A program made the position numbers and the translations under genes. Under the pieces are notes generated by a model. It worked only from the letters and a program-made list of their open reading frames with translations. It made no database searches and was not told the origin of the DNA. A stretch of DNA of 64,000 nt from an uncultured virus (IMG/VR IMGVR_UViG_3300019135_000021) (lineage: Duplodnaviria > Heunggongvirae > Uroviricota > Caudoviricetes), in IMG/VR virus record IMGVR_UViG_3300019135_000021; one strand, 5' to 3'. Each line of letters opens with the position of its first letter. Position 1 is the first letter of the stretch. Positions 306-63,398 of the stretch are shown here, piece after piece.

Positions 306-357
306 TTAAAAGTAATTGTATAAAATCTATATTTTAAACAGATTAGGAGCGATTATA

Positions 358-600
358 ATGGCGTATAAATGGGAAAAAGAATGTTTACAAAAATATGGAA
401 AGGAAGAAACTTTTCATTTAATCGAAGAACAGCGGGCTTATGAAAGAAAACATAAAGATAATCCTTGTAATAATTGTGGAAATGGGAACCAAGGTGCCAT
501 TTTAGAATATTCCAAAGGCAAATTGAAAGGTAAGCCCTTTTTAATGCGTTATGGATTATGGTCTAATAAGCGTTGTGAATATTGTGGTAGACACCAGTAA
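358..600 (+). CDS. hypothetical Cys-rich (Zn-binding?) protein
   Basis: AGGAG RBS before ATG 358; two CxxC pairs. Confidence 0.7.
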   Translation: MAYKWEKECLQKYGKEETFHLIEEQRAYERKHKDNPCNNCGNGNQGAILEYSKGKLKGKPFLMRYGLWSNKRCEYCGRHQ

Positions 601-661
601 TTGATGTCTTGAATGCTTAAGAGAGATCAAAAATGAATTAAAAATAAATTAAAAATATATG

Positions 662-690
662 TTGACTAATTAAAATAGTCATAGTATAAT
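662..690 (+). promoter_or_regulatory. sigmaA promoter with palindromic operator
   Basis: TTGACT-17bp-TATAAT; TGACTAATTaAAATAGTCA dyad. Confidence 0.8.
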
Positions 691-763
691 AAAAACATAA
701 GAAAAAGCAATTAATAAAAACCTAAACACTAATTAAAAGTAAAGCATAAAAGAGGAGAAGAAA

Positions 764-1114
764 ATGAGAAATAAAAAGTTAATGGAAAAAGTAAATGATT
801 TAGGTACTCAAAATTTAAGCACAAGAGAGCATAGTACAAGAGTAATGATACAAATAGCAATAATCATGAAAGCGTTTGGAGTTAAAAGAGATGAAATCAA
901 CAAGCCAGTAAGAGATTATGAGAGAGAGATTATTCTATCCGATGATGAAATAAGAAAAGAATTCTATAGTGAATTAAAATTCCTAAACAGAGTTAAAGAA
1001 AAAAATGATATCGATAAAATAAAAGAGTTTAAAAATGGAGTTCACTATTTTATTGACGCTGTAAGATTTTTTAATGCTAGCTTAGCAGATGAGTTTGAAA
1101 CATATGTTAATTGA
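764..1114 (+). CDS. hypothetical phage protein
   Basis: ORF with GAGGAG RBS. Confidence 0.75.
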   Translation: MRNKKLMEKVNDLGTQNLSTREHSTRVMIQIAIIMKAFGVKRDEINKPVRDYEREIILSDDEIRKEFYSELKFLNRVKEKNDIDKIKEFKNGVHYFIDAVRFFNASLADEFETYVN

Positions 1115-1134
1115 AAAAGAATGGAGCGGTTAAA

Positions 1135-1686
1135 ATGACAAAACAGTATATCATTAAAGATCTTCAAACGGGAGACTTTTCACACCATACTACGCTAAAC
1201 GATATTTTTGAGGACTTGGTTCAAGATTATCTTTCTAATGATTGGACTGATGAAGAAGCCGGGGAGAACGAAACAAAATTTAAACAGTACACAGAAGATG
1301 AAAAAATAGATTTTGTCCAAGACGAGTATGAATATAAATTAATTGCATATCCTACTCCGCAACAGATAGCAGAGTGGGAGGAGTTCACCGGGAGGAAATG
1401 GGAAGAAGCCAAAGAACCTAACAGGGTGTTTGTCGTCTATACTCTGCATATTCGGGACAGAGGGAGAGGAGGGCACACTTGGGGCATTAAAGGTTTGTTC
1501 TATGATCGACACGAAGCAAACAAAAAAGCTATCGCAATAAGGAACGAACATATAGAAGAATGGTACACTTCTAAAAACGACAATTCTTATGAAGTATACG
1601 AGTTTATGAAAGGCTTAAATACTAGCAGTGTAGAGAGTGATAACAGTTCTTTTGAAATCAGTGTAACAGAAGAATATTGCGAGTAA
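1135..1686 (+). CDS. hypothetical acidic phage protein
   Basis: GGAG RBS before ATG 1135. Confidence 0.75.
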   Translation: MTKQYIIKDLQTGDFSHHTTLNDIFEDLVQDYLSNDWTDEEAGENETKFKQYTEDEKIDFVQDEYEYKLIAYPTPQQIAEWEEFTGRKWEEAKEPNRVFVVYTLHIRDRGRGGHTWGIKGLFYDRHEANKKAIAIRNEHIEEWYTSKNDNSYEVYEFMKGLNTSSVESDNSSFEISVTEEYCE

Positions 1687-1718
1687 AGATATTTTACATA
1701 GATGGGAAGGAGTTAACA

Positions 1719-1931
1719 ATGACACACAATGAAAAATTACTAAACGCATTAATGCAGTTCAAAAATTCAGCATATGAAATTCGGGATCTTTGGGAGCAAG
1801 CTGACAGCATAACAGATAGTGATCTTTGTGATGATTATCCATTTGATAATGATTTTTGTGAAGTTGTTGAAAAGATAGGTGACTGGGTAATGACACAAAA
1901 TAGCTTATTAAACCAAGATAAAACAAATTAA
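1719..1931 (+). CDS. hypothetical phage protein
   Basis: AAGGAG RBS before ATG 1719. Confidence 0.7.
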   Translation: MTHNEKLLNALMQFKNSAYEIRDLWEQADSITDSDLCDDYPFDNDFCEVVEKIGDWVMTQNSLLNQDKTN

Positions 1932-2102: not shown

Positions 2103-2297
2103 ATGAATGAAATGGATTTAATTCATGCGTTTAAATCAATGCTAATGGTAGCTAGAGAATACGAGGTAAAAATTGATGAGAAGTACGAAGAATTAGAAAA
2201 TATCCTATTAGAAGAGTATGACTTAGAAGTGGTTCATACAGTGGATCATGACATGATGGATAGTATGGAAAAGGTGTATCAACTATTAAATAAATAA
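2103..2297 (+). CDS. hypothetical phage protein
   Basis: ORF; stop codon embedded in TAAAA-N6-TTTTA motif. Confidence 0.65.
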   Translation: MNEMDLIHAFKSMLMVAREYEVKIDEKYEELENILLEEYDLEVVHTVDHDMMDSMEKVYQLLNK

Positions 2298-2330
2298 AAT
2301 GCATATTTTAAACAGAATGGAGAGATTGAA

Positions 2331-2591: not shown

Positions 2592-2673
2592 ATTCAAAAG
2601 GAAGCCAGAATGACCTTTAAGCAGATATTAATTTAAATAAAACAACAATTTAAAACAGAATGGAGAGAGCAAA

Positions 2674-2973: not shown

Positions 2974-3070
2974 AATAAACCAGCAGTTTTATTTTAATTG
3001 CTAAGCAAAAATAGGATTTGTCTTAATAATTCCGAATAAGTTACGATAAGAAAGATAAATAAGGGGGGGA

Positions 3071-3739
3071 ATGGAATTGAAAGTGCTTCATGAGCTATTA
3101 CTTCAAAAAGGAGTTCCAGAATCGCATATAAAAGAAATGAAGAGAATCCTTAACTTTAGGGAAGATACATTTTTATTTTATTATGAGCAAGAAGAAACAA
3201 TCTGTAGTAATATACCTCTTTCGAAAATAAAAAGTCTAGGCTTCAGAGGTTCAAGCGGTTTATCTTGGTTTGACCATGTTTGCGGTAAAGGAGTTAATAT
3301 AGATGAACGGCGTTGCCAAGAAGCTTTTGAACACTTAGTAAAAAAACCCCTTGAAGATTTTCAAAAATTCTATAAACAATTCCCAGTAAAGTTAATATAC
3401 TTTGAAGATGATGATTTTTATGCAGTTAACGGGGATGGAACGCACCGTACACTGTGGGCAAAAATAACTGGAGCTCCAGCAATATCAGCCGAAATTACAA
3501 TTGCTCGAAAAAATTATTTAGCATATGAGGCATTTAATAAAGACTTTGGAGCAACTTTTAAATTTAAAACGCTTCTCCAGAATACAATAAATATTGCACC
3601 GGAGAAAGTTGAATCAATACTCTTATTAGTTATTAGGAAAATAACTGAAAGCGAGAAAATAGGCAAGTACGTGCCTGAATTTATGCGAATGGGGTTAGAT
3701 TTGTATTGTATAGAAAAAGCACTGGTTTATTCCAAATAA
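3071..3739 (+). CDS. ParB/Srx-like domain protein (putative)
   Basis: YAVNGDGTHRT resembles the ParB/Srx DG-x-HR motif. Confidence 0.5.
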   Translation: MELKVLHELLLQKGVPESHIKEMKRILNFREDTFLFYYEQEETICSNIPLSKIKSLGFRGSSGLSWFDHVCGKGVNIDERRCQEAFEHLVKKPLEDFQKFYKQFPVKLIYFEDDDFYAVNGDGTHRTLWAKITGAPAISAEITIARKNYLAYEAFNKDFGATFKFKTLLQNTINIAPEKVESILLLVIRKITESEKIGKYVPEFMRMGLDLYCIEKALVYSK

Positions 3740-3742
3740 AAC

Positions 3743-3979
3743 ATGAATTTTAAACAAATTAAAAGGGATGCAGTAAAATTGCTTGATCAAATACATGATT
3801 GTTTTGTAAGTGTATATAGAAGAGTTCCAAATAAAATGGAATTAAAAATTATTGCAAAGACTTTGCCCGCGGAAATTAAATTCCTTGCTGATCAATGGGG
3901 CTGGAATGATACAGAAGTAGGGGACAAGGTGCTCTATTGGATAGCACAAATGAAAGCAGAAAAGGAGAACCAAATATGA
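3743..3979 (+). CDS. hypothetical phage protein
   Basis: ORF; start uncertain. Confidence 0.6.
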   Translation: MNFKQIKRDAVKLLDQIHDCFVSVYRRVPNKMELKIIAKTLPAEIKFLADQWGWNDTEVGDKVLYWIAQMKAEKENQI

Positions 3980-4376: not shown

Positions 4377-4487
4377 AATACTAATTAAAACAACAATCAT
4401 CACTATAGACTAATGCTGATTTTGAATAAAAACATTATTTTATGAAAAGTTTACTTCTGAAGAGAAGGGGCATTGCTTTGAAAAGTG

Positions 4488-6559: not shown

Positions 6560-6871
6560 ATGATAAATCAAATGGATAACAGCTCAACTTCAGTCAGATC
6601 TTTAATTTTTAGCACGCATATCGAAAGATTGAAAGAGTTGCTGTTTAAACTGCATGATGGATCAATTACAAAAGAAGAGCTCCGGGAATTATCCAAGATC
6701 CATTTAGAGTGTATGGGAATGACCGCGCATGTGGTTGGGGAAGCAAACGAATTTCTTTTAAAGTCTGATTTGCTTCCTGAAGACGATGCTAAAGAAATAA
6801 ATGAGCTGCTACATAAGATCAAGGAAAGCAAAAAGGAAAAGAAAGATTTTTCTGATCAAGAATTAGAATAA
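6560..6871 (+). CDS. hypothetical phage protein
   Basis: ORF. Confidence 0.7.
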   Translation: MINQMDNSSTSVRSLIFSTHIERLKELLFKLHDGSITKEELRELSKIHLECMGMTAHVVGEANEFLLKSDLLPEDDAKEINELLHKIKESKKEKKDFSDQELE

Positions 6872-6903
6872 AACCAGTCTTTTAACGGAAAAGGAGCAAG
6901 AAA

Positions 6904-7746
6904 ATGTCCAAAATAAAGCATGAGAATATTGCTACTTCCTCTGCAATACGAATTGCTAGCATAGTTAATGAATACTTGTACGATGATGATATCTTTTCGC
7001 TGGAAGATGCCATTGACATTTACGATATAAACGTTGTGCAACGTATGTTTAAGCCGAATAAAAAAACATTATTACACTATTTTATTGAAATGTTTTGTGA
7101 CCCATATGAGGATATCGATTCATTACACAAAAACTTAGATGAAGAGGAAGCATTGAAAATTATTTTGCCAATCTTAAAAGAGTATAAACAAATCGATAAT
7201 ATAGAGGGATTTATTTTTGATGATTTTGTAATTAGTGAAAGAATCAATAACGACTATGATCAATTCATTAAAAATATGCAAGAGTTTATTACCCGTAATA
7301 ATAAGTTAATTATAGATCACTTAGTTCATTCGACATTTCAGATATTGTTTTTGGACAGGAGCTTCCTTCATGACTTTCACAAAAAAGTCTCCGAGATTGT
7401 TAAAAAAAATATAGTATACCTTGCTTCTACATACCCGGAACATTTCACAGTGAAACAAAGGATTAAACGAACCGAATATTGGAATACTTGGTTGGAACAT
7501 GCGATTTTCTACAGAGATAAAGGTCATTGTGTTATATGTAGAACTGATTTAACAAAGACACTCAGTGTAACCGGAACTGTACACATAGATCACATAATTC
7601 CTCTAGAGTTATTCGGCAGTAATGATTCTTCTAATCTTCAATTGTTATGTGAATCGTGCAATACATCTAAAGGTGCAAGAACGACTGAGACGAATAATAT
7701 GAATGTACCTTTTTGGAATTATGATTATAAGGATAAAACTGAATAA
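6904..7746 (+). CDS. HNH endonuclease domain protein (C-terminal HNH)
   Basis: RDKGHCVIC...HIDHIIP...GSN...NLQLLCESCN. Confidence 0.85.
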   Translation: MSKIKHENIATSSAIRIASIVNEYLYDDDIFSLEDAIDIYDINVVQRMFKPNKKTLLHYFIEMFCDPYEDIDSLHKNLDEEEALKIILPILKEYKQIDNIEGFIFDDFVISERINNDYDQFIKNMQEFITRNNKLIIDHLVHSTFQILFLDRSFLHDFHKKVSEIVKKNIVYLASTYPEHFTVKQRIKRTEYWNTWLEHAIFYRDKGHCVICRTDLTKTLSVTGTVHIDHIIPLELFGSNDSSNLQLLCESCNTSKGARTTETNNMNVPFWNYDYKDKTE

Positions 7747-7763
7747 AATAACAATTTTAAAGG

Positions 7764-8237: not shown

Positions 8238-8276
8238 ATAAAACAACTCTTTTAACGAAAGAGAGAGGAAAGGTTT

Positions 8277-9906: not shown

Positions 9907-9956
9907 CTTTAAATAAAAGAAGCATTTTAACATAACAGGCAGCGGAAGAAGAGCGG

Positions 9957-11699: not shown

Positions 11700-11828
11700 A
11701 GACTGATGAAGATGATATGGTCGAGGATTTTCAAATAAAAACATCGTTTAATTATACGAATTTTTGAATAGAAGAAGGCGTAGGTGTTACAAAAACTTCT
11801 GTCAATATAAAAATGATTTTAGAAAAGA

Positions 11829-12686: not shown

Positions 12687-12712
12687 GCAAATGTTAAAAG
12701 GAGATTGAACAA

Positions 12713-14119
12713 ATGCAGGATGTTAGTGTATTTATTTCTTATAGCTGGACAAACGATGAATTAGTGGATTGGGTACGAGAAGAGCTGGCAACAAGGTTAA
12801 GTAATGACGGAATTGAAGTCATTCTTGACCAGTGGGATTTAAAAGAAGGTCAAGATGTATATCTTTTTATGGAATCGATGGTCAATAACTCTGAAATAAA
12901 TAAAGTTTTGGTTATCTGTGATAAGGGGTATAAGTTAAAAGCAGATTCTCGTCAAGGTGGAGTAGGAACTGAAACTCAAATTATTACACCCGAAATATAT
13001 AAAGATGCAAAGCAAGAAAAGTTCATACCAGTGATCTTCGAAAGAGATGAGCAAGGAAATGATTTTATACCAACTTTTATGAGTGGAAGAAAATACATAG
13101 ATCTATCAGGGGATTTATTCTATGAAAACTACGAACAATTACTGAGAATAATTTATGAAAGACCATTACATAGAAAACCTAAAAAAGGTAACCCACCAGC
13201 ACACCTTTTTGAAGATGAACAAATCAACCACTACAAATTTAGTTTTATTTTAAAACAACTTCTAATTGATGTGTCCAAAGGAAAGAGTGAAAATGCTGTA
13301 AGTAAGGCAAAACAATTCAAGAATGAATTTATAGGCACATTAAGAGAGTTCTCTATTGTAGATATTAAACACGGCCAATTGTATCAAGAGGTTAACAATA
13401 AAATAGATGATATGCTTATATTGAAAAATGACTATGTTGAATTTATTCAACTCTTATCACAATATAATTTATTAAATGTTGAGTTTTTAATAGAATTTTT
13501 CGAAGAATTTCATAATACAGTTATGGAAATAAAAGCGGAAATTAGTAGCTATTATGACGCTCAATTTGATCATTTTAATTTTCTCATTAGAGAAATCTTC
13601 CTTTACACAATTGCATCTCTAATAAAAACAGCAAATTATGAAATATTAGGGGAATTACTGCACTCTCGTTTTTTTGTATTTAAAGATTTTGTTGCAGATG
13701 GAATAGAAGGAACTAATTTTGAGGTTTTTAATCATTATATTCCTTCTCAAACAGATAGAAATAATAATGGGCTTCTAAAACTGAATGAGAGATTGAGCAA
13801 AGGTTTTTCTAAAACAGAGATTGCCAATGCAGATGTTTTACTTTACTATATTTCTGCTTTAATGAAAGAAAATAGTCGTTTATGGTTCCCTTTTTCTTAT
13901 ATTTATTTAAAAGGAAAAGTTACTTTACTTCAAAAAATGGAATCCACAAGACATTTTGAAAAAGTGAAAAAGATTTTTGATGTAAGTAGCAAAGAAGAAT
14001 TTCTTCATAAAGTAAAGAATTTTAATAATCCAATGAAGGAGGGCTATGGCGGTTTTAATGGCTCGATACCAGATATAACAGATAATATCAAGCTAGAGGA
14101 TATTTGTAAATATAGATAA
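12713..14119 (+). CDS. SEFIR/TIR-domain protein, putative antiphage effector
   Basis: VFISYSW...LDQWDLKEGQD...KVLVICDKGYKLKAD...GGVGTE...KFIPV. Confidence 0.85.
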   Translation: MQDVSVFISYSWTNDELVDWVREELATRLSNDGIEVILDQWDLKEGQDVYLFMESMVNNSEINKVLVICDKGYKLKADSRQGGVGTETQIITPEIYKDAKQEKFIPVIFERDEQGNDFIPTFMSGRKYIDLSGDLFYENYEQLLRIIYERPLHRKPKKGNPPAHLFEDEQINHYKFSFILKQLLIDVSKGKSENAVSKAKQFKNEFIGTLREFSIVDIKHGQLYQEVNNKIDDMLILKNDYVEFIQLLSQYNLLNVEFLIEFFEEFHNTVMEIKAEISSYYDAQFDHFNFLIREIFLYTIASLIKTANYEILGELLHSRFFVFKDFVADGIEGTNFEVFNHYIPSQTDRNNNGLLKLNERLSKGFSKTEIANADVLLYYISALMKENSRLWFPFSYIYLKGKVTLLQKMESTRHFEKVKKIFDVSSKEEFLHKVKNFNNPMKEGYGGFNGSIPDITDNIKLEDICKYR

Positions 14120-14244
14120 AATAATTGTTTCATTGAAGGAATGAAAATGAAGCTAAATCAATCCTAGAAGAGATTGAAGCAAAAGGTGCAGAAACAAAGG
14201 TTTTTTGTGAACAGAACTGTGGACTTAAATCGGAGTGAAAGCTA

Positions 14245-14796
14245 TTGACAGACACTATATTAGCAGGAATAATCGGTGCAACAGTTGCAGGAATTGTTCC
14301 GTTCATTATTTATTTACTAACAGAGACTAAGAAAAAGCAAGAGAGAAGATTAGAAGCTTTATACGATATTCACAAGGAGCTTGAATCATTTGTATTTAAA
14401 AGTGATGATCTTAAGTTTGAATTAGAGCGAGCTTCTACTTTTGAAAATTTAATTGAAAAAATTAAAGAGATCAATGAATTCTTTACAACTCATTTTTTTG
14501 ACAAAAAAAGAAAAATGACTCATTCAGCATTATTTATAGATTCCGAGGTATATAATCAAACTTTAGATTTTTTTGAAGAAACTTTTAAAGAACTCAAACA
14601 AATGCAAACGGAATTTGCTTATAAAAAAACTTCCTCAGAACAACCTTCTGAGAAAATTGAACAATATAATAAATTGTATCTATTTGGATTAAGCGCAATT
14701 GGGGACAATGGGGAAAAACTTAATGACTTAATTAAAAATAAAACAAATTATTATTATCAGAAACATTATCCAGCATGGAAGTTTTGGTTAAAATAA
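14245..14796 (+). CDS. membrane-anchored hypothetical protein
   Basis: N-terminal TM helix followed by a helical domain. Confidence 0.7.
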   Translation: MTDTILAGIIGATVAGIVPFIIYLLTETKKKQERRLEALYDIHKELESFVFKSDDLKFELERASTFENLIEKIKEINEFFTTHFFDKKRKMTHSALFIDSEVYNQTLDFFEETFKELKQMQTEFAYKKTSSEQPSEKIEQYNKLYLFGLSAIGDNGEKLNDLIKNKTNYYYQKHYPAWKFWLK

Positions 14797-14823
14797 ATAT
14801 TTCTAATCATTTGGAGGTGTTTC

Positions 14824-17514: not shown

Positions 17515-17587
17515 TCAGTTATAGTGAAAAGAACTATGTAACGCTTATAAAATACGAATTTTATTAAAACTAATTAAAAGAAATATA

Positions 17588-19799: not shown

Positions 19800-20894
19800 T
19801 TGGGGGCTGTAGTTCAATCGATAAGAAAATACAGGGTGTTCGATGATATTTTAGCTTTTCTAAAGGAAAAAGACACAGATAGCTCAGCTGGAAACATTAA
19901 GGGGTATAACAAAAACAAGAAGAAAAAATCGAAATACGGATTGCACTCTAATACAGCAGTTAACTATTTAAGCGACATTAAGCAGTTTTTTTGGTTTTAC
20001 TGTAAGACTGAAATTGAATTTTTAAAAGAAGAACATCTGTCTTTTAAAAGGTCAGATGTTTTGGCATTTAAACATTATCTTGAGCATAACAAAGGTGCAG
20101 CTAACACAACTATCAATCGAAAGATCGCAGCACTTAAATCATTACATGGTGAACTGAAAAGGCTTTATCCTGACTATGTTGAAGATGATCCTTTTTATAA
20201 CGTTAAAAGGAGCAAAGAAATAAGAAGGACAAGAGCCAATACTTCACAGATCCAAGCAGAAATGATTTGTGACAACATGTTCATTTATGAAAAACAGAAA
20301 CCACTTCTGAAAAAATTATTTGGGTACTTCCTTTTGAGAAGTTCTTTTAGAATATCCGCGGCTCTTGACGTTAGATGGTGTGATATTGAAGTATCTAATG
20401 AGAACCCAGATTGGTTTAGAGTCACTGTCATTGATAAAGGGGCAAAGCTGTGCACTACAGGAATTCACAGAGTGTTTTATGACCAGTTGCTTGAATTAAG
20501 AAGTGATAACACAAAAGACACAGATAGGGTATTCGAGGGACTTACTGAAGATGCATTTAGAGCTTCTCTCAAACGCTCATTAAAAAGTCTGGGCATTCCA
20601 GAAGAAAGCGGGATATCTCCTCACTCATTTAAAGGAGTAGGGATAACGGAAGTATTCGAAGCCACAGGAAATGATTATAGAGCAGCCATGAAACAAGGTA
20701 ATCATAGTAACTTTGATACAACCTTGAGATACTTGAACAGCGAAACAGACATCTCCCAAACGGCGGGGATAATAATGGATGAAGAATTAGACATATCTAT
20801 TCTACAGCAAGTTACTAAAGAAGAGTTCTTAGATTTTTTTGAACAATGTGATAAACAAACATTAAGAAAGGCTTTACAGTTTTTCAATCGTTAA
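19800..20894 (+). CDS. yopP: tyrosine recombinase/integrase-family protein (YopP-like)
   Basis: SAM-like N-domain (TINRKIAALKSL); catalytic R (SSFRISA), K (IDKG), HSFK, GNH, TTLRY. Confidence 0.85.
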   Translation: MGAVVQSIRKYRVFDDILAFLKEKDTDSSAGNIKGYNKNKKKKSKYGLHSNTAVNYLSDIKQFFWFYCKTEIEFLKEEHLSFKRSDVLAFKHYLEHNKGAANTTINRKIAALKSLHGELKRLYPDYVEDDPFYNVKRSKEIRRTRANTSQIQAEMICDNMFIYEKQKPLLKKLFGYFLLRSSFRISAALDVRWCDIEVSNENPDWFRVTVIDKGAKLCTTGIHRVFYDQLLELRSDNTKDTDRVFEGLTEDAFRASLKRSLKSLGIPEESGISPHSFKGVGITEVFEATGNDYRAAMKQGNHSNFDTTLRYLNSETDISQTAGIIMDEELDISILQQVTKEEFLDFFEQCDKQTLRKALQFFNR

Positions 20895-20961: not shown

Positions 20962-22338
20962 ATGGAATCTCCTGTGATTTTTGATATGGAAGCAGATAAA
21001 AAGTTGATGGAAGAATTAATTGAGACTAAATTAAAAATACAACATGATAATAAATTAATGACAGCATATAGACAAGCTATGATGAAGGACAAATTTCCTC
21101 CAGGGAAAGCGCAAGAACTTTTCAATAAGCTTAGCAGTCCACATGCAAGATTAACGACTGGAGAAAAATATTTTCTCGCGAAAAACCTACACAGGATCAC
21201 TAAAGAGGAAAGAATTTCTCCTGAAAACTATTTCCCTCCGAACAGAATAAAGGATATAGAACTTAACTGGGAAGGCTACAAAACGGATGAAGTATCGTTC
21301 CCGTACACATTTACAGATGTTACAAAGATTGCTTCAGACAATTATTTCTTTAAGGTGAAAGCGAGCGAATTATTTAAGCTTTATGAATCACAATTGCTTC
21401 GCTACAATCCAAAGGCTCAACGAACTGACAGGACAATTCATTTAAAAGAAGTAGATGATGAAATACCCGTTCCTGAGTTGGTTGAGTCTTCAGTCGAAGC
21501 TATAGCGCAATTAACAGAAAAGAACGACTTGATAAAGTCAGTATTGACATTTAACGCACTATTAGGGAGCTCAGAAGAAGGAATCGAGCTTTTATTCGAT
21601 GAGGAAGAAAGAAAAATAACTGTTACTAAAGGCACTCGTTTGGACGTAATTGATGGTTGGCACAGACTGACTGGTATAAGTAGAGCTTTCAGAAGAAATC
21701 CAAATATCAAAGATTTTTATTTGAAAGTTGATTTGTATAACTACACAATGAAAAAAGCAAGAAAACACTTCGGACAACAAAATACCATTAACCCGGTGGC
21801 CAAATCAAAGATCGCGGAAATGAGTGAGAACGATTATCTTTCTGTTGTCATTAACTTTATTAAAGACAACAGTGACATCGGAGAATTAATTAAAGTGAAT
21901 GAGGACAGCATACGCAAGGGAGAGCCTTATATCACCACTTTCGAAAGATGTCTCAAAGGACTAAAAAGGGCTTTGAATACATTTGACTATACAGTTGAAA
22001 ATTTAGCCGAAGCAAGAAAGCTTGGCATGTATTTGACGGACGTATTTAATACGGTTTTTAATTCGTATATAGATGATTTTACAAACCATTCCTTTGGGGA
22101 AAGTAAAAGTGCTATAACAACTTCTCCAGTCATTTTAGGAGTTTTAGCATTGGGGATTAAAATGAAGTTAGAATCAAAATCTGCAGATGATGTGGAGGAT
22201 GTGCTATCTAACTTAGATTTTTCCTTGGATAACAAACTGTGGCGAGAGCTTAAATTAGTAAGCGAGGATACAAAACTAAATAATAATGCAATTAAAGATA
22301 CATTCGAATTTTTTAGTCGGTTGACAACAGAGGTGTAA
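20962..22338 (+). CDS. yopQ: YopQ-like DndB/ParB-fold (DGQHR-type) protein
   Basis: 458 aa; VIDGWHRL motif; synteny. Confidence 0.75.
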   Translation: MESPVIFDMEADKKLMEELIETKLKIQHDNKLMTAYRQAMMKDKFPPGKAQELFNKLSSPHARLTTGEKYFLAKNLHRITKEERISPENYFPPNRIKDIELNWEGYKTDEVSFPYTFTDVTKIASDNYFFKVKASELFKLYESQLLRYNPKAQRTDRTIHLKEVDDEIPVPELVESSVEAIAQLTEKNDLIKSVLTFNALLGSSEEGIELLFDEEERKITVTKGTRLDVIDGWHRLTGISRAFRRNPNIKDFYLKVDLYNYTMKKARKHFGQQNTINPVAKSKIAEMSENDYLSVVINFIKDNSDIGELIKVNEDSIRKGEPYITTFERCLKGLKRALNTFDYTVENLAEARKLGMYLTDVFNTVFNSYIDDFTNHSFGESKSAITTSPVILGVLALGIKMKLESKSADDVEDVLSNLDFSLDNKLWRELKLVSEDTKLNNNAIKDTFEFFSRLTTEV

Positions 22339-22341: not shown

Positions 22342-23343
22342 ATGGAACTGTATAATGATACGGTAAAGAAAAAGTTTATAGAACAAGTCAAAAAGGAAGA
22401 GCAGCCCCAGTTATTATCAATATTCCGAAAAGGTGCAGAACTTGAAGAATATTTGAAAAAAGATATTTACGATTTTAATTCTAAAGAGATTCTTGAGTTC
22501 TTAACTCTGTTGAATAGATCCACGCTTTCTTCTATAATGAGTTGCTGGTCTCACATCACAAGGTATATTGATTGGGCAATTTATCAAAATATCACTAGAG
22601 GTACTACAAATTTGTCTAGAGACTTAACTATTGATGATGTTAAGAACTGCGTTGATGAAGGGAAGAAGCTCTATATTACTTTAAATGAGCTCAAAGAAAT
22701 TTTAAATACCTTAGTGAATCCCAGAGACAGAGCTATGTTAATTCTCCTATTTGAAGGGGTTCAAGGTTTCAAATGCAGTGAAATATTAAATCTTGAAAAA
22801 TCAGATATTGAAAAAGCCTTACAGAATGACAACATTTTAACCGTAACTGATGATAAGCATGGGCAGAGAGATATCAAAGTGAGTGATGAATGTCTTAAAA
22901 TTTGTCTTGAAGCTGCAAATGAACCAGTGTATCAAAAGAAAAATGGATATTCTGAAGCATTTAATAAAGAAACAATATTAGCTGATAATAATTTTGTTAT
23001 TAGAAACCGAAGAACCAATTCAGATAAAGATCAAGAAAGATCTTCGTTTTTTGTCATAATTAACACGATGAGATATATTTTCTCACCAGAGTTTTTTGAT
23101 TATCCATATGTTAACCCAACGAGAATAAATAGGTCTGGTGTTTTATATGAAGGATTTAAAGTGTATAAAGAAAAAGGGAAATTAGAAACAGAAGATTATA
23201 TTAATATAATTCAAAAGAGAAGCGAAAGATATGAAGACATTCATAAAAAGGTTTACAAGGTTAAAGAATATATGAATGAAGAAGAGATTAAAAAATATTA
23301 TGCGAAAGAGCTTGGGATTGAGGGTACTATTAGAATGCGTTAA
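22342..23343 (+). CDS. yopR: master repressor MrpR/YopR (degenerate tyrosine-recombinase fold)
   Basis: 333 aa; RDRAMLILLFEGV...SEILNL; no canonical R-H-R-Y set; synteny. Confidence 0.8.
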   Translation: MELYNDTVKKKFIEQVKKEEQPQLLSIFRKGAELEEYLKKDIYDFNSKEILEFLTLLNRSTLSSIMSCWSHITRYIDWAIYQNITRGTTNLSRDLTIDDVKNCVDEGKKLYITLNELKEILNTLVNPRDRAMLILLFEGVQGFKCSEILNLEKSDIEKALQNDNILTVTDDKHGQRDIKVSDECLKICLEAANEPVYQKKNGYSEAFNKETILADNNFVIRNRRTNSDKDQERSSFFVIINTMRYIFSPEFFDYPYVNPTRINRSGVLYEGFKVYKEKGKLETEDYINIIQKRSERYEDIHKKVYKVKEYMNEEEIKKYYAKELGIEGTIRMR

Positions 23344-24474: not shown

Positions 24475-24755
24475 CATGATCGCTGCATATCCAACAAGAA
24501 TTGAAATTAAAGACTACAGTAAAGTAGGTTTAGTAAAGAGAATAAGAGAAAAGGAGGCAGCTGGATGGGAATGTATTCAACCTATCTCAAAAAGATGTAA
24601 AGAGGAGTTATTACCAACTGTGTCGATAGTGGGCTAAAGTACAAACGAGCGTATGTTAGGCGTTTTGAGCATTATGTTGTTATGAAAAAGACCAAATAAG
24701 CAAATTAAAAGTAAATAAAAGAATATTTTTATACAAATTAAAAGGGGGAATACAT

Positions 24756-25934: not shown

Positions 25935-25980
25935 AGCTTAATTTGAATAAAAGTAAAACTTTAAACAAATTAAATGGAGG

Positions 25981-26274
25981 ATGAAGATGATTGTCAAAAA
26001 ACAAACCAAAAAGATGGTTATAGAAGTGTTTCATAATTCCTTGGATGAGATGTGGGAAACAATCAAGCAACTGGAACAAGAAGGGTGGTCTGGAAACACA
26101 AGAGTGAGTGTTGTAGGGATGCCTCTCTTTGAATTTAAATTACGTAATGAAGAGGAGGTAAAGAAGTTTAAAGAATTATATCAGACAACAAAAGTGCAAG
26201 AGCCTGAAGAAGATTCACTCTTTGATGACTGTCCGTATGTACTCTATACAATTCATGAACGTGAAATTGAATAA
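25981..26274 (+). CDS. hypothetical phage protein
   Basis: ORF with GGAGG. Confidence 0.7.
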   Translation: MKMIVKKQTKKMVIEVFHNSLDEMWETIKQLEQEGWSGNTRVSVVGMPLFEFKLRNEEEVKKFKELYQTTKVQEPEEDSLFDDCPYVLYTIHEREIE

Positions 26275-26311
26275 AATTGAAGTTTTAAACAAATTAAAAG
26301 GAGTAATATCT

Positions 26312-26482: not shown

Positions 26483-26529
26483 ATTTTTAATAAAAAGATT
26501 GTTTTAAAGAGAATTGGAGATAGTGAGAT

Positions 26530-27459: not shown

Positions 27460-27635
27460 TTCTAGATACAAGGATTATTTTAACCAAAGAGGGGATGAAA
27501 GTATCGGTTACATCAAATACATATTGGAAACAGCATGGTTTAACTTAGTATGGTTTAAATGGCATTTGGGAGCAGATATAAAAGTGTTTGAGAATTGCAG
27601 CTGGAAAGACTATATAGATTCCAAAAGGAGGGGCA

Positions 27636-29713: not shown

Positions 29714-29982
29714 TGAATTAGGTATAACGAAAGATGCCATTCAAGAAATGATTCGTATTGCAGTATCAAATGAAGTTAAAAAAGCAACAGAGTCAGGGGA
29801 ATTTCAGTCATTTATAAATTCAAAAATTTTTGGAGATGGAGGAAGGTTGCTCTACGGCTTTAAAGAAAGAGTGTCTCAAACAGTATCTAATGAAGTAGGC
29901 AAACGAATTGCCAATAACCTCAACATAAGTGTGGAGCTGAAAAGTCGATAAAATAGTTATTTTATTATGAAGGAGGAATTGT

Positions 29983-32869: not shown

Positions 32870-33218
32870 ATAAAAACAATCTTTTATTTGAAAGTAAGTG
32901 GCTATTGTTTAGTTTATTTAAACCAAATACCTGTGAGCAGTGCAAATTCTATTCAGAATACAAGACTGCAGATGTGCTTCAAAAAGACAAGACAGTAACA
33001 AGAGGGAAGATGAGATATTGCAAAAAGAAGAAAGATGAACTCCGAGATATGGAGAAATGCGAGCTTTTTCAATTGAGAGGGGGGAAAAATAACTTTTACT
33101 GATGCAGCCGATCATTATTTTAAAAGAAAAGGAGAAAATTAATCGAATCGTAATTTGCACTTAGCCCTATACGCAAAGAGAAAATTTGAGAATAAAATAC
33201 TAATTAAAATGATAAGGA

Positions 33219-35372: not shown

Positions 35373-35523
35373 GAAATACCCTTTCTTACTTTTTTTATAA
35401 TTATAAATTAAGCTTCAAGATTTATAAAGATTCAAAAGTCTTATTAGAAAATGCCCCGAAAATAAAGATATTTAGGATTTGATTAAAACTAACCTTTTAT
35501 TAAAAAAATGTTTGAAATAACAA

Positions 35524-42860: not shown

Positions 42861-42875
42861 ATGGGAGGGAATGCT

Positions 42876-47824: not shown

Positions 47825-48544
47825 GTGATGGAAATTTTCAAAAAACTGATAGACTCAAACAAATTAAAAGTATATAATAAATACAAAGAGTTGCAGATCT
47901 ATTCTGTAATCTTTCTATTGGGGGTGGGATCAACATTAGGCTATAAGATGATAGAGGAACACATCCAGCAGCAAAAGAAAGTTTCAATAAAAGAGCCATT
48001 TTATAAAAAGCCAGACTTCATTCGTGAAGTGAAGTTTGAAAGGCAGGTGCTGCCTCATTTAGAGACTCGCCAAGAGATTATTGAAAAGGCACAAGATAAG
48101 TATTTACATATTAAAGTAGAAGAAGTTAAAAAAAATAAACCAAAAAGCAAATTAAAAGAAAATACAAAGAGGAAAGTTTCTTTCAAACCCAAGCAAAAGA
48201 CTCAAAAGAGGCCTCACGAACAAAATCAAGCCATTAAAATGGAGGCCACGGCTTATGTTCCATTTTGCGATACTGGCTGTATAGGGACAACTAAAACAGG
48301 CTATGACGTGTCAAATACAATTTACTATAAAGGGAAAAGAGTGATTGCAGTTGATCCATCTGTAATTCCTCTGCACTCTTTAGTGAAGGTATCTTATAAT
48401 AACGATTCGTTTGAGGCTTATGCTATAGATACAGGAGGTGATATTAAAGGGAATCGAATCGATCTTCTGGTTCAATCAGAATCAATCGCAAGAGACTTTG
48501 GTCGAAGAAATGTTGATGTGAGTATCATTACAAAAGGGAGCTGA
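47825..48544 (+). CDS. yorM: YorM-like 3D-domain (cell-wall-related) protein
   Basis: EATAY...IAVDPSVIPL...AIDTGGDIKGNRIDL; true start probably downstream of the promoter at 47850-47878. Confidence 0.8.
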   Translation: MMEIFKKLIDSNKLKVYNKYKELQIYSVIFLLGVGSTLGYKMIEEHIQQQKKVSIKEPFYKKPDFIREVKFERQVLPHLETRQEIIEKAQDKYLHIKVEEVKKNKPKSKLKENTKRKVSFKPKQKTQKRPHEQNQAIKMEATAYVPFCDTGCIGTTKTGYDVSNTIYYKGKRVIAVDPSVIPLHSLVKVSYNNDSFEAYAIDTGGDIKGNRIDLLVQSESIARDFGRRNVDVSIITKGS

Positions 48545-52392: not shown

Positions 52393-52439
52393 ACTAAACT
52401 AATTAAAAGGATGATTTAAAAGGGAGAGGAGGAAAGCCT

Positions 52440-53795: not shown

Positions 53796-53847
53796 ATAAA
53801 ATCATAATTTTATATACTAATTAAAAGTAATCTAAGGAGGAAGAGTT

Positions 53848-60286: not shown

Positions 60287-60321
60287 AGAATAAAATTGAT
60301 CTGAAAAAGTGAGGCAAACAT

Positions 60322-61317
60322 ATGGCAGAAAACAATGCACCATATACAGCGGCCAACTGGTCGCAGCACGAAGACGGATTCACGCAGATGTTTTACGAAC
60401 AGAACGTTAAGCAGTTTTGGCTTCCGGAAGAGATTTCGCTAAACGGCGACCTTCTAACGTGGAAATATCTCGGAGCCAACGAACAAGATACATATATGAA
60501 AGTGTTGGCCGGTTTAACCTTACTGGACACAGAACAAGGGAATACTGGTATGCCAACAATTGCTGAGCATGTGGAAGGGCATCAGCGCAAAGCGGTGCTG
60601 AACTTCATGGCGATGATGGAAAACGCGGTCCACGCCAAGTCCTATTCAAACATTTTCATGACGCTTGCCCCGACAGAGAAGATAACGGAACTGTTCGAAT
60701 GGGTGAAGACGAATCGCTACTTGCAGCGGAAAGCCGCAATCATTGGCGGACTGTATAACGCGATTGAGGCAGGCGATGACATTTCGTTATACAAGGCGAT
60801 GGTCGCATCCGTTTATTTAGAAAGCTTCCTGTTCTACAGCGGATTTTATTATCCGTTATATTTCTACGGTCAAGGAAAGCTGATGCAGTGCGGAGAAATT
60901 ATCAACCTCATAATTCGGGACGAAGCGATTCACGGTGTTTATGTCGGTTTGCTTGCCCAGGAAATTTACAACAAGAAAGACGAAGGCACGCAGCATCGAC
61001 TTGAAATGTTTGCGTTAAGCCTTATCGAAGAACTCTATCGCAACGAGATCGCCTACACTGAAGAACTGTATGATCAAGTCGGCCTCACACATGACGTTAA
61101 AAAATTCATCCGGTATAACGGAAACAAAGCGTTGTCCAATCTCGGATTCGATCCGTACTTTGAAGAAGAAGAAGAGATCAATCCGATCGTGTTGAACGGG
61201 TTGAATACGAAAACGAAGTCACACGACTTCTTCTCAATGAAAGGGAACGGCTACAAAAAAGCAACAGTTGAACCGTTAAAAGACGACGATTTTTACTTTG
61301 AGGAGGCACCACAATAA
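60322..61317 (+). CDS. nrdF: ribonucleotide reductase class Ib beta (no intron)
   Basis: [28 protein letters not shown]. Confidence 0.96.
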
Positions 61318-61568
61318 TGAAATTAATCAAATTAGAACAGCCTTCATGCACCCCTTGTCAATTAGTGTCTAATTATCTAAAAGAAAAAGGGATTGAATTT
61401 GAGGCGATTGATGTTACTGTACGGCCAGAAGTAGCAGCAGAGTATGGAGTGATGGGAGTCCCCGTCACTATTCTACTCGATGGAGAAGGTAAAGAAGTAA
61501 AACGCAGCAGCGGTTTTAAGCCAAATGAATTAGATGAATTAATTTTTAAAATCGAAAACTGTAAATAA
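61317..61568 (+). CDS. thioredoxin/NrdH-like redoxin
   Basis: CTPC motif. Confidence 0.88.
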   Translation: MKLIKLEQPSCTPCQLVSNYLKEKGIEFEAIDVTVRPEVAAEYGVMGVPVTILLDGEGKEVKRSSGFKPNELDELIFKIENCK

Positions 61569-61605
61569 AATGGTAATTTTAATGAGAATTAAAAGGAGAG
61601 ATTGA

Positions 61606-61992
61606 ATGTATTTCATTGAAAAACAAGAAGAATTAATCGGAAAAGAAATTGCTTATGTCTGGGCAAATCAGTTTTGTGAGCAAACAACTATCATTACAAA
61701 AGATAAAGGTGTATTTATGGTTTGCCAAGAAGTTGGCTGGGACGATGGAGATAAAGAGACAAGAGTATTTTATGCACATGAAGCCAAGGAAATATTATAT
61801 CCTCTTAGAAGAGAATTGCATAAAAAAGGAATCATTGACGAATCTGAGTGGGGAGAATATGAAAAAGAACTAAAAAAGAAACAGGAAGCTGAAAGGGAAA
61901 GATTTTGTAAGAAACAAGAAGAAAGAGAACGTAAAAAGTATGAGGAGTTGAAAGCAAAGTTTGAAAATCAGGCAGAGCCAATTAAGGATTAG
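61606..61992 (+). CDS. hypothetical phage protein
   Basis: AAGGAG RBS. Confidence 0.75.
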   Translation: MYFIEKQEELIGKEIAYVWANQFCEQTTIITKDKGVFMVCQEVGWDDGDKETRVFYAHEAKEILYPLRRELHKKGIIDESEWGEYEKELKKKQEAERERFCKKQEERERKKYEELKAKFENQAEPIKD

Positions 61993-62321
61993 GGGGAATA
62001 AAAAATATCTAAGTGGAAAGTTGATTTTTTTATTGAAGAATTAACCGATCTTGATTTTTTCTATCCAACTACTGTAAGCTCGCATACGAAATTAGATTTG
62101 AATATTGTCTTTGAAAGACTTATGGAATTAACACTTGATTGCAAACTAGCATTGAAATTTGAATGGAGGACAGAGGAAGGCACTAAGATTCTTGATTTGG
62201 ATAGATTCAATAATCTGTTTAAATTAGAGAGGCATGATCAAATACCTCTACATGAATTATATCCTGTGTTTCAAGTTTCTGAAGAATATAAAAGACACTT
62301 AAATAAAAGGAGATCGAAAAA

Positions 62322-62756
62322 ATGACACTACATATCAAAATCAAATATGCAGACGAAACACAAACGCGCATTTCAAAAATCGAACAGGGTGATTGGATTG
62401 ATCTGAGAGCTGCGGAAGATGTATCTATTCCAAAGGATGAGTTTAAACTGATTCCTCTCGGAGTGGCGATGGAATTGCCTGAAGGGTATGAAGCCCATGT
62501 CGTTCCTCGTTCAAGTACATATAAAAATTTCGGTATCATTCAGACCAATTCAATGGGCGTGATTGATGAGGCATACAAAGGGGACGATGATTTCTGGTTT
62601 TTCCCGGCTTATGCGCTGCGAGATACTGAAATTAAAAAGGGAGATCGAATTTGCCAATTCAGAATTATGGAGAAGATGCCTGCAGTTGAATTGGTCGAGG
62701 TCGATCATTTAGGCAACAAAAACCGTGGAGGGCACGGTTCAACTGGCACTAAGTAA
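62322..62756 (+). CDS. dut: trimeric dUTPase
   Basis: [27 protein letters not shown]. Confidence 0.95.
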
Positions 62757-62827
62757 ATAAAGAACCTTGGCTGTCTTCTTGATGTACAGACAGTGTGGAG
62801 TGCAGCCAAGGTTTGTCCAAACTTATC

Positions 62828-63280
62828 TTATTTTTTAATCGTAAAGCTGAGTTCCTGTGAATCGTAATAAAACTGGTAAAGCTCTTCGTGATCCCAGCCG
62901 ACAAAATCCTTTTGTTTTGGATCGTAGGCTTGGATATCAAGAAAGCTTCCTCTATTCTTGTATCCTTTTGTTAAATTATTTACTTCGGTATAGATGATGA
63001 CTTTTTTGAAAGGTGAACTTGAAGATATTGTGTTCTTAATTGCTTCAACAATTTTGTTTATCCCAGTTTTGTTTGGTTGCAGCGTTTCTTTTAACACAGC
63101 AATAATTTCTTCTACACAATTAATTGCCGAAGTGCTGTTGTGATTCAAGGTATCATAAACATGAAGAATTTCTTTGTCAACTTCATATGTGTAATTGAAA
63201 TTGCTTTTGTTTTCAAAGCCTACATCTTTAATTGATCCTTGAATAATTGGGTGTTGAGTTGTTTGCATAAATTTAACCAC
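62828..63280 (-). CDS. hypothetical protein
   Basis: Minus-strand ORF; hairpin AACCTTGGCTG/CAGCCAAGGTT at about 62763-62813. Confidence 0.7.
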   Translation of the reverse strand: MVKFMQTTQHPIIQGSIKDVGFENKSNFNYTYEVDKEILHVYDTLNHNSTSAINCVEEIIAVLKETLQPNKTGINKIVEAIKNTISSSSPFKKVIIYTEVNNLTKGYKNRGSFLDIQAYDPKQKDFVGWDHEELYQFYYDSQELSFTIKK

Positions 63281-63398
63281 CTTTTGCAGAATTTATTGAA
63301 CAATTTAATTTTATCAAATCTTTGAAAATACAGGTATTAATAACCTTTGAGTTTTCAATAAAAGAAGACTTTTATCGTAATTGTTAAGGAGGTGCAAA

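Follow-up and report, generated by a model that had tools for sequence, protein, structure and literature searches.

A 28-bp dyad built around the palindrome TAAAA-N6-TTTTA is repeated about 20 to 40 times in the genome of an SPbeta-like phage, in the short intervals that separate early and accessory genes. We analyzed it in a stretch of 64,000 nucleotides (here called the window) of an uncultured virus of the Caudoviricetes (IMG/VR record IMGVR_UViG_3300019135_000021) and in the genomes of related phages. The dyad is a phage-specific duplex site with two-fold symmetry whose 6-bp centers are unique within a genome and keep the same order from phage to phage; around it, islands of about 22 bp are retained even where the genes on both sides differ. 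We read the dyads as probable duplex sites for a dimeric phage protein that would serve as "addressed" joints for gene exchange, and we give this reading a probability of about 0.55. A literature search found no description of the motif, and in the 50- to 134-kb part of the SPBc2 record no feature is annotated at the dyad sites; the two "palindrome" features annotated there are different sequences from the dyad. Even if it should prove to have a regulatory role alone, the motif is an undescribed cis-element that is present 30 to 40 times in SPbeta.

The source phage and its relatives

The window corresponds to bases 57350 to 121349 of a one-contig provirus record of 128,908 bp that is rated complete by CheckV, and it holds an early gene region on the plus strand. 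On sequence grounds the source phage is SPbeta-like, although a distant member of that group. The proteins that it shares with SPBc2 include AimR, YopP, YopQ, MrpR, YorE to YorL, Nrd, YosR and dUTPase, with Pfam concurring, and their identities range from 30 to 88%. Only two short megablast matches were obtained for the first 20 kb of the window against 50,697 phage records, and the nearest relatives are IMG/VR proviruses and a prophage of Bacillus glycinifermentans. For comparison, we used eight whole genomes (seven named SPbeta-like phages, with a pairwise blastn coverage of 46 to 72% among them, and this genome) together with 13 loci. Twelve IMG/VR relatives (L095 to L106) were compared around mrpR, as was the B. 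glycinifermentans genome G001, with its contigs C2 and C30.

Enrichment of the dyad is confined to one spacing and to the phage

TAAAA-N6-TTTTA occurs 20 times in the window, compared with a mean of 1.19 and a maximum of 4 in 100 dinucleotide shuffles, none of which reached 20. An earlier reading of the sequence alone (here called the original prediction) had expected such an enrichment; all 19 perfect copies that it listed are present at their positions, and a 20th, at 47988, had been missed. A scan of TAAAA-Nk-TTTTA over k = 0 to 20 is the cleaner control because composition is preserved, and it gave 20 copies at k = 6 and 0 to 3 at each other k. As the enrichment is confined to k = 6, composition cannot account for the motif. 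The seven named phages carry 30 to 43 copies each at N6 and 0 to 4 at other spacings (phi3T has 30 and SPBc2 34, with 2 in the reversed control of each), so that the eight genomes together range from 24 to 43 copies at k = 6 against 0 to 4 elsewhere. In the 128,908-bp genome there are 24 copies, 20 of them in the window and 4 in the remaining 64.9 kb. Longer-armed copies that had been noted at 9372 and 23380 do exist as sequence but are unsupported as a class, because their spacings of 10 and 8 are at background level. The ComK box has the form A4-N5-T4; it was dismissed as an explanation, spacing 5 being at background in the same scan.

The 4.8-Mb B. glycinifermentans genome contains 74 copies compared with 58 in the reversed control, and the matches listed cluster on prophage contigs. 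The signal is therefore that of the phage and not of the host chromosome, as far as one host chromosome can tell, and a host-wide motif serving a host factor was ruled out by this lack of enrichment.

Copies with one mismatch are weakly enriched as a class (50 matches at one mismatch or fewer against 23.65 expected). The seven that had been listed before (2638, 2976, 11736, 14117, 25948, 27467 and 50129) are all present; six of them, the exception being 50129, as well as a further copy at 52404, carry the center of a site that is perfect in relatives. The match of 14117 concerns its core only, because the TAATTG site of the relatives aligns with window position 14789.

Under a generous longest-open-reading-frame (ORF) model, 13 of the 20 perfect copies are wholly non-coding, although such sequence amounts to 6,162 bases; within-segment shuffles placed a mean of 0.11 and at most 2 copies there (500 shuffles). 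One further copy lies on an ORF edge and six lie in ORFs. Only 47988 is within a conserved gene, the yorM homolog; the other five in-ORF copies hinge on doubtful ORFs or start codons. TAA serves as the upstream stop codon at eight perfect copies (Table 1) and in the variants 9372 and 14117, as had been predicted, and many sites begin on that stop codon and end roughly 13 to 35 nt ahead of the next start codon. No copy occurs at the yorF-yorL junctions (36000 to 47817), again in line with the prediction.

Anatomy of the 28-bp site

Aligned over all genomes, the sites extend beyond the palindrome to a 28-bp consensus, TYTnnA-TAAAA-N6-TTTTA-WnnARA, which consists of an 11-bp arm, a 6-bp center and a second 11-bp arm. 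Positions were counted relative to the first T of the dyad, with one representative per center (n = 87). The left arm has T at -6 in 65 representatives, Y at -5 in 72, T at -4 in 56 and A at -1 in 69, and the right arm has W at +16 in 85, A at +19 in 59, R at +20 in 80 and A at +21 in 79. The left arm is the less conserved of the two, as would be expected where it runs over the final codons of a gene. The 11-6-11 layout is that of a tyrosine-recombinase core site, in which inverted arms of about 11 to 13 bp enclose an asymmetric center of 6 to 8 bp; none of the 87 centers is palindromic.

Centers recur in a conserved order between phages

The 266 sites in the eight genomes comprise 87 different centers, 50 of which occur in at least two genomes. 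No center is repeated within any of the eight. Uniqueness and the absence of palindromic centers are weak evidence, since few repeats and few palindromes are expected by chance. That no core occurs twice per genome favors an exchange in which matching sites of different genomes take part, and it argues against cassettes being excised or shuffled inside one genome. By inspection, the 22 centers common to phi3T and SPBc2 are all in the same order. The distant genome studied here shares 8 centers with SPBc2 (simulated mean, 1.24; 0 of 5000 simulations reached 8), 6 of them collinear (P = 0.018), and 9 with Goe12, 7 of them collinear (P = 0.001). Its run 24716, 25948, 26272 and 26491 is ordered as GATGCA, GTAAAA, TTGAAG and AGACTG are in SPBc2, with unrelated genes separating the sites. 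Two of the centers, GTAAAA and TTGAAG, match exactly, AGATTG and AGACTG are one base apart, and GAATAT, which differs from GATGCA in four bases, is matched by place only.

Pairs of sites with the same center were then sorted by whether their flanks are homologous (at least 70% identity over 100 bp). Among 492 such pairs, both flanks are homologous in 129, the left only in 87, the right only in 90 and neither in 186. The 176 distinct pairs of this last class have a median of 22 bp in common, and in 120 of them the common stretch is no longer than 24 bp; between SPbeta and phi3T, GTTTTA, TATTCC and GATGCA are addresses at which the dyad alone is common to both. A strict four-gamete test was passed by 2 of the 41 centers found in at least three genomes, and a further 13 have re-assorted both ways. 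The TGCATA site, present exactly once in each SPbeta-like record searched (10 records, plus SPBc2 and phi3T), has neighbors from six ORF families on its left and six on its right across the eight genomes.

Homology between relatives breaks off at the dyads

In the seven named phages, a homology breakpoint was found at 162 of 200 dyad junctions compared with 435 of 1263 others (odds ratio, 8.1; p = 9e-36), with an excess in the same direction in all seven genomes; such p-values overstate independence because one junction is counted in several genomes. When only co-directional junctions with gaps of 20 to 60 bp are considered, breakpoints occur at 51 of 56 dyad junctions and 60 of 128 others. 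Between the window and the twelve IMG/VR relatives, they occur at 7 of 8 dyad junctions and 23 of 56 others (p = 0.02). At perfect dyads of the window we counted 36 of 172 ends of high-scoring segment pairs, compared with 2.7 expected by length, and inside junction zones 31 of 121, compared with 8.6 expected. At base resolution among the named phages, the start of homology falls between -10 and -1 and its end between +15 and +24, counted from the first T. The shared stretch takes in the whole 28-bp site, including its center, whichever side is homologous.

Gene modules with sites on both sides recur in different contexts, as shown by the HNH gene and by ORF 25981-26274. In L104 the segment replaced is precisely the HNH gene between 6869 and 7744, homology stopping at 6884 and resuming at 7743. 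The idea in the original prediction that the motif marks cassette boundaries thus held up, in that the dyads coincide with points of gene gain, loss and replacement between relatives. Its likening of the system to an integron did not, and neither did the proposed shuffling of genes, the core order being conserved between distant phages.

A candidate protein: YopP

In the mechanism that we propose, the arms would dock a dimer of a phage-encoded protein. Each dyad would be a fixed joint, and co-resident or co-infecting SPbeta-like phages would exchange the genes lying between joints, with matching centers keeping the exchange in register and the gene order preserved. A tyrosine recombinase might cut at the borders of the 6-bp center and prefer partners with the same center, as in Xer/dif or Cre/lox; such an enzyme would explain both the identical arms and a center that must match. 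Taken alone, strand exchange by a tyrosine recombinase is the likeliest mechanism, at somewhat short of an even chance, and the YopP-like XerC-type protein (Table 1) is the candidate for it. A more specific version is that of a natural recombinase-mediated cassette exchange, in which about 30 heterospecific dif-like sites with ordered six-base addresses would be read by YopP, and co-resident phages would swap accessory, defense and counter-defense genes between matching addresses without scrambling their order. We regard this version as possible but would not expect it to hold in full.

The YopP-like gene is the only PF00589-like match in the genome. Its product scores 25.9 bits with Phage_int_SAM_1 and 22.3 bits with Phage_integrase. 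A search of the PDB with the single protein sequence gave no match; with a profile of the YopP family, XerH was the best recombinase match (E = 0.015) and Cre had E = 0.14. The family is narrow, with eight clusters, of which all named ones are from Bacillus. Residues R184, K213, H275 and Y311, which were assigned by eye, are invariant in the eight homologs. In the available text of PMC8612738, YopP is described only with an "XerC superfamily integrase domain" and as part of a conserved yopP-yopQ-mrpR block, where the domain of YopQ is named ParB_N_Srx; excerpts of PMC10516654 name YopP as a core gene of these phages.

No resolvase-type serine recombinase (PF00239) was matched at E ≤ 0.01 in the provirus record (G000). 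SPbeta itself integrates by means of the serine recombinase SprA; this provirus may have an integrase of a different type, or one encoded beyond the limits of the record.

The repressor MrpR, whose like is encoded in the same block as YopP, is a recombinase-fold protein and was considered as the binder. Chromatin affinity purification sequencing (ChAP-seq) of MrpR gave 10 peaks, all at the 15-bp SPBRE, according to the part of PMC10516654 available to us. In the SPBc2 sequence, 9 of the 10 MrpR target promoters share a 15-mer of the type ACAAAAAATATGTAT, which is unlike the dyad, and in the window words of this type are not enriched (10 matches against 13.03 expected). Identity of the dyad with the SPBRE/MrpR operator, which the original prediction had named as an outcome that would refute it, was therefore rejected: the dyad is another sequence, and SPBc2 has 34 dyads for 10 peaks. 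By the same count the known repressor is not the binder, so that MrpR, judging by the published ChAP-seq data (PMC10516654), does not bind the dyads in SPbeta. In our own reading of the SPBc2 data, about 4 to 5 MrpR peaks have a dyad within roughly 150 bp. A promoter of the phage RNA polymerase YonO was also ruled out, since the consulted part of PMC5467207 places its single late promoter upstream of yonK.

A second motif of the window, AC[T/A]AATTAAAAG, has 24 matches at one mismatch or fewer compared with 1.53 expected, 23 of them on the plus strand. Copies include those at 301, 728, 17569, 24275, 35533, 47859, 50554, 52398 and 53816; at 35533, 47859 and 50554 the motif fills the spacer between a -35-like hexamer and TATAAT, and six copies directly follow a dyad. 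It occurs upstream of or in the homologs of aimR, yopV, yorE, yorM and yorZ, which are five of the ten MrpR targets reported for SPbeta. In this phage the second motif therefore probably takes the place of the SPBRE operator.

Weighing the alternatives

Several observations weigh against addressed joints and a YopP-like recombinase. The Phage_integrase score of the YopP-like protein is below the Pfam cut-off of 27.1 bits, and the position of the second catalytic Arg is K in six of the eight homologs and R in two. Exchange also takes place without dyads: the 23 non-dyad junctions of the window that are breakpoints attest to it, and 58 of 78 breakpoint clusters in the window lie away from perfect and one-mismatch dyads, many of them at start codons. 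A breakpoint, moreover, marks the end of homology and not the place of a crossover. Laboratory hybrids of phi3Ts and SPbeta cross over in blocks that are identical in the parents and measure between 29 bp and 18 kb. Dyads stand at the start or end of the three long blocks (1.4, 4.9 and 18 kb), although crossovers cannot be placed there, and the short crossover intervals (29 to 87 bp) contain no dyad. The preprint on these hybrids, in its accessible part, assigns 15 of 16 recombination sites to homologous regions and one, after yosA, to a "non-homologous" site (10.1101/2020.05.06.055103).

The centers, too, are not always kept. Six of them (GAATAT, GATGGA, GATGAA, GATTAA, GATGCA and GATGTA) occupy the slot of 24716 in 13 relatives whose left flank is homologous, and in some of these the right flank is homologous as well; in L098 and L099, each flank is 1 to 2 bases off the window and the center 2 to 3 of 6. 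Over 54 close pairs with both flanks conserved, the center differs at 0.043 per base compared with 0.018 and 0.022 for the flanks. This faster divergence could result from heteroduplex repair after exchange between unlike centers, or simply from weak constraint. Dyads with the centers ACTGTC and TACTCC sit in conserved contexts, with one type of left and one type of right flank each, and one dyad lies inside yorM in three phages. The regular place of the sites just upstream of ribosome-binding sites suggests a role in expression, and a second role of this kind for the same bound protein is plausible and could go along with exchange.

A purely regulatory site is an unlikely alternative. The dyad would then be an operator or a roadblock at which a dimeric DNA-binding protein of phage or host governs how the gene downstream is transcribed or translated, much as at repressor sites scattered among genes, and mosaic boundaries would coincide with it only because it is a conserved piece of every intergenic linker. 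Arms of 5 bp around N6, one helical turn apart, are typical of helix-turn-helix dimers; the distance to start codons, the frequent overlap with stop codons, the unvarying contexts including that of yorM, and the breakpoints at start codons lacking a dyad all agree with such a role, and several copies adjoin promoters or operators, e.g., at aimR and yorE. A spacer that is not read should drift, yet identical centers persist in order at the protein identities given above, and the 22-bp islands are retained between unrelated flanks. In addition, a 28-bp footprint would suit a recombinase dimer better than a small helix-turn-helix dimer, and the known repressor has its 10 peaks elsewhere. We consider it still less likely that conserved linkers and general recombination suffice, with no dedicated enzyme. 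The dyad, often with a leader and a ribosome-binding site, would then be the only sequence shared between alternative genes, and homologous or short-homology recombination of host or phage would cross over there. The laboratory hybrids, which arose in homologous blocks (10.1101/2020.05.06.055103, as far as available), point this way, as do the start codons that are breakpoints too and the shared leader of about 25 nt at some addresses (TGCATA and TCGGTC); PeSLs, discussed below, are thought to work so in the part of PMC2839356 consulted. Such linkers would leave the strictly spaced palindromic arms and the outer TYT/ARA positions at all addresses unexplained, as well as the uniqueness of the sites within genomes. 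A shared stretch of at most 24 bp, as in 120 of the 176 pairs with neither flank homologous, is also short for RecA-type exchange.

Two further readings are far less probable. Integron-like behavior, in which single-gene cassettes are excised as circles and re-inserted or shuffled by a center-tolerant recombinase, seems very improbable to us. Single accessory genes are indeed bracketed, as at 6869 to 7744, the center of 24716 changes while its flanks stay, and two decayed copies of one address (14117 and 14789) enclose one ORF where relatives have a single site. However, attC-type hairpin potential and covariation are absent, and there is no IntI/attI/Pc module: the one PF00589-like gene sits in the lysogeny operon, and the sites are spread over 63 kb, i.e., the whole early region. 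The conserved order of addresses between distant phages and the lack of any duplicated perfect center within the eight genomes also argue against it. An RNA-level element, i.e., a hairpin or protein site in polycistronic mRNA for processing, termination or translational coupling, is barely credible despite its apt place between a stop codon and the next ribosome-binding site. With stems of five A-U pairs, the dyads have a mean folding energy of -1.8 kcal/mol over 32 nt, 2 of 20 sites stay unfolded, and none of the 11 position pairs tested covaries beyond composition, by which an RNA hairpin and an attC-like fold were ruled out. The two sides of the consensus also mirror each other, a symmetry for which an oriented RNA signal has no need, and copies occur in oppositely transcribed regions. 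Two raw-read RNA runs contained no reads of this phage, and the RNA-labeled contig runs, which hold contigs of 36 to 128 kb, are uninformative on transcripts.

Individual sites and neighboring genes

The coordinates of the dyads and of the yopP block are collected in Table 1.

Table 1. Dyads in the window and genes of the yopP-yopQ-mrpR block, with their centers and counterparts in relatives
Feature	Position	Strand	Center	Context and relatives
Perfect dyad	321..336		TCTATA	Center also in 7 named phages, there in another genome region
Perfect dyad	2295..2310		TGCATA	TAA = stop of ORF 2073-2297; site also in B. glycinifermentans prophage
One-mismatch copy	2638..2653		CAACAA	Perfect in Goe12, SPbetaL1, SPbetaL6 and G001 contig C30, likewise ordered after TGCATA
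One-mismatch copy	2976..2991		CAGCAG	Perfect in SPbetaL1, SPbetaL6 and G001 contig C30
Perfect dyad	3737..3752		CATGAA	TAA = stop of ORF 3071-3739
Perfect dyad	4427..4442		ACATTA	Identical center at corresponding place in L104
Perfect dyad	6869..6884		CCAGTC	Left border of HNH gene; TAA = stop of ORF 6560-6871; center also in L104 and G001 contig C30
Perfect dyad	7744..7759		TAACAA	Right border of HNH gene; TAA = stop of ORF 6904-7746
Perfect dyad	8239..8254		CAACTC	Upstream of Schlafen/AlbA_2 gene; L106 homology ends at 8252; center also in L101
Perfect dyad	9914..9929		GAAGCA	Homology of relatives starts at 9913, ends at 9904 and 9929; center also in L101-L106 and G001
One-mismatch copy	11736..11751		ACATCG	Perfect in L096, L102 and L104; homology ends at 11753
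One-mismatch copy	14117..14132		TAATTG	TAA = stop of TIR-domain gene; perfect in Goe12, 6 IMG/VR relatives (L095, L096, L103-L106) and G001
Decayed copy	14789..14804		TAAATA	Two arm mismatches; aligns with perfect TAATTG of relatives; homology starts here in 6 loci
Perfect dyad	17548..17563		TACGAA	Upstream of aimR homolog; homology starts at 17547 or 17557 in 5 loci
YopP-like divergent tyrosine recombinase, candidate dyad-recognizing protein	19800..20894	+		Pfam, profile and alignment results as given above
YopQ-like protein (DndB / ParB-Srx-like)	20962..22338	+		Same operon as YopP-like gene
MrpR (YopR)-like repressor, recombinase fold	22342..23343	+		MrpR_C_cat, E = 5e-53
Perfect dyad	24716..24731		GAATAT	First junction past yopP-yopQ-mrpR block
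One-mismatch copy	25948..25963		GTAAAA	Perfect in SPBc2 (86886) and 4 other named phages, likewise ordered before TTGAAG; homology starts at 25960 in 6 loci
Perfect dyad	26272..26287		TTGAAG	TAA = stop of ORF 25981-26274; center also in SPBc2 (87599), SPbetaL1 and 10 of 12 IMG/VR relatives; flanks unrelated in named phages; homology ends at 26289 in 5 loci
Perfect dyad	26491..26506		AGATTG	Syntenic with AGACTG of SPBc2, phi3T and others; right-hand gene homologous
One-mismatch copy	27467..27482		GGATTA	Perfect in 8 of 12 relatives; homology starts at 27466 in 9 loci
Perfect dyad	29949..29964		TAGTTA	TAA = stop of ORF 29748-29951; homology start at 29948 and homology end at 29964, in 7 loci each
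Perfect dyad	31728..31743		CAGAAA	TAA = stop of ORF 31368-31730; center in 9 of 12 relatives; homology starts at 31723
Perfect dyad	32871..32886		ACAATC	Center also in L100 and L102; no breakpoint seen, site at edge of coverage of the loci
Perfect dyad	35484..35499		CTAACC	Upstream of yorE homolog
Perfect dyad	47988..48003		GAGCCA	Inside yorM homolog (3D domain); center in G001 contig C2
One-mismatch copy	52404..52419		GGATGA	Perfect in 6 named phages and G001 contig C2, collinear
Perfect dyad	53797..53812		TCATAA	Upstream of yosL homolog; center also in G001 contig C2
Perfect dyad	61566..61581		TGGTAA	TAA = stop of yosR (thioredoxin) homolog
Perfect dyad	63359..63374		GAAGAC	Center also in G001 contig C2

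Some positions relative to genes recur in SPBc2. A dyad likewise stands upstream of aimR there (76171), and the end of yosR carries GGGTAA (126703), the window having two extra genes after 61566. At the place upstream of yorE, the SPBc2 dyad (99498) has a different center, TGATAA. That center is the reverse complement of TTATCA in the phi3T dyad upstream of yorE (89340), and about 14 nt of the right flank in phi3T resemble the reverse complement of the left flank in SPBc2; the pair may reflect an inversion that ended at the dyad, or chance in AT-rich sequence. The dyad inside yorM is found at the same place and in the same frame in SPBc2 (111029) and phi3T (101606), and it is either functional within the gene or kept by the protein motif I-K-x-x-F-Y. 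ORF 25981-26274, which lies between 25948 and 26272, occurs as a unit in 6 loci. The two decayed TAATTG copies at 14117 and 14789 flank ORF 14245-14796, relatives having one perfect site, and the arrangement resembles what an insertion would leave behind after duplicating the site.

Pfam confirmed two gene assignments of the original prediction, the HNH gene (6904-7746) and the Schlafen/AlbA_2 gene (8277-9374); the "ParB-like" label of 3071-3739 found no backing, with no Pfam family at E ≤ 0.001. Accessory cargo between joints includes the Schlafen/AlbA_2 protein (8277-9374), a pair of DUF6414 and TIR/SEFIR-domain proteins (11829-14119) and a subtilase (15227-16159), which are defense-like genes carried by the phage.

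Other features of the window concern single genes. The DNA polymerase III alpha homolog (42861-47817) is split by an HNH/NUMOD endonuclease ORF (45570-46394). An HNH ORF (55389-56093) interrupts the NrdE homolog (54553-58753), which also contains a LAGLIDADG intein; the arrangement resembles the intron and intein noted for bnrdE/bnrdF in the SPBc2 record. In two public runs, several assembly contigs end at 31790 to 31842, and short contigs of much higher depth cover this interval, which suggests a short segment that is repeated elsewhere in the genome of that host.

Significance

Phage genomes are mosaic, and it has long been asked how unrelated genes come to be swapped with such precision at their borders. 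Two explanations are commonly given: illegitimate joins that arise at random and are then sifted by selection, and recombination within short linkers that are conserved. In the model phage family of SPbeta and phi3T, such borders are marked by a well-delimited element that resembles a protein-binding site. If addressed joints are the right reading, they would provide a dedicated mechanism for ordered mosaicism in phages and give a function to YopP, a conserved core gene of this group. As the cargo includes TIR, Schlafen/AlbA_2, HNH and methylase genes, the element may explain the spread of such genes among Bacillus prophages. SPbeta and phi3T are genetically tractable, so the proposal can be tested directly.

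Comparison with known systems

Among repeated intergenic elements of phages, SPBRE is the closest in carrier, as it belongs to the same phages. With about 10 sites, in promoters (PMC10516654, in part), it is scarcer than the dyad, and the two stand within about 150 bp of each other at aimR, yorE and yosX. Stoperators of mycobacteriophage L5 are asymmetric 13-bp sites, oriented with transcription, that are bound by the phage repressor. They resemble the dyads in number (20 to 30 copies) and in their place in short intergenic gaps of a temperate phage. The dyad, by contrast, has two-fold symmetry, and in the ChAP-seq data accessible in PMC10516654 the peaks of the SPbeta repressor are not at dyads.

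The promoter-early stem-loops (PeSLs) of T4-type phages, as presented in the consulted part of PMC2839356, are likewise short intergenic repeats that bound insertions, deletions and replacements in the plastic part of the genome. A PeSL combines a strong sigma-70 promoter with a terminator hairpin, and its copies recombine by their similarity and form mini-circles. The dyad has no stable stem and, by inspection, no -35/-10 pair in its 28-bp consensus; its different copies share only 10 to 16 fixed bases, and no center repeats within a genome. Integrons share with the dyads the pattern of single, mostly promoterless, co-directional genes with imperfect palindromes in between, and a tyrosine recombinase. 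Their attC sites are long and variable and act as folded single strands, and their cassettes are excised and re-ordered next to intI/attI, none of which was seen for the dyads.

The Xer core sites come nearest in layout. Bsdif has the same 11-6-11 arrangement. The arms of difSL are printed as TTTCCGAAAA and TTTTCTTGAAA and difH as AGTTATGAAAA in the available text of PMC5357621; the A4/T4 inner arms of the dyad recur in difSL and difH, and its right arm TTTTAWNNARA matches the printed TTTTCTTGAAA at 10 of 11 positions, which is a resemblance and not a test of membership. The printed central regions (11 bp in difSL, 6 to 10 bp in difH; PMC5357621) are longer than that of the dyad. Bsdif, difSL/XerS and difH/XerH are, moreover, single chromosomal sites for dimer resolution (PMC5357621, in part), whereas the phages have 20 to 40 sites with differing centers.

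A multiplicity of sites is found in the pdif modules of Acinetobacter plasmids, as far as described in the accessible part of PMC6449649: many dif-like 11-6-11 sites lie in accessory regions, modules are flanked on both sides and occur in varied contexts, and recombination rests largely on comparative evidence, all as for the dyads. The pdif sites resemble the dif of the host and are attributed to host XerC/XerD (PMC6449649). The dyads differ in their symmetric arms, in the lack of enrichment in the host chromosome, in having a center of its own for each site in a conserved order, and in their phage carrier.

We know of no natural array of heterospecific recombinase sites. Heterospecific lox and FRT sites have identical arms and differing spacers, only sites with the same spacer recombine, and a segment is swapped without deletion or inversion. 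The finding of six centers in one dyad slot is unlike this logic. Cassette exchange between such sites is nevertheless the logic that we propose for the dyads; lox and FRT are put to this use in engineering with Cre and Flp, whereas the spacer rule of the dyads is one that we infer.

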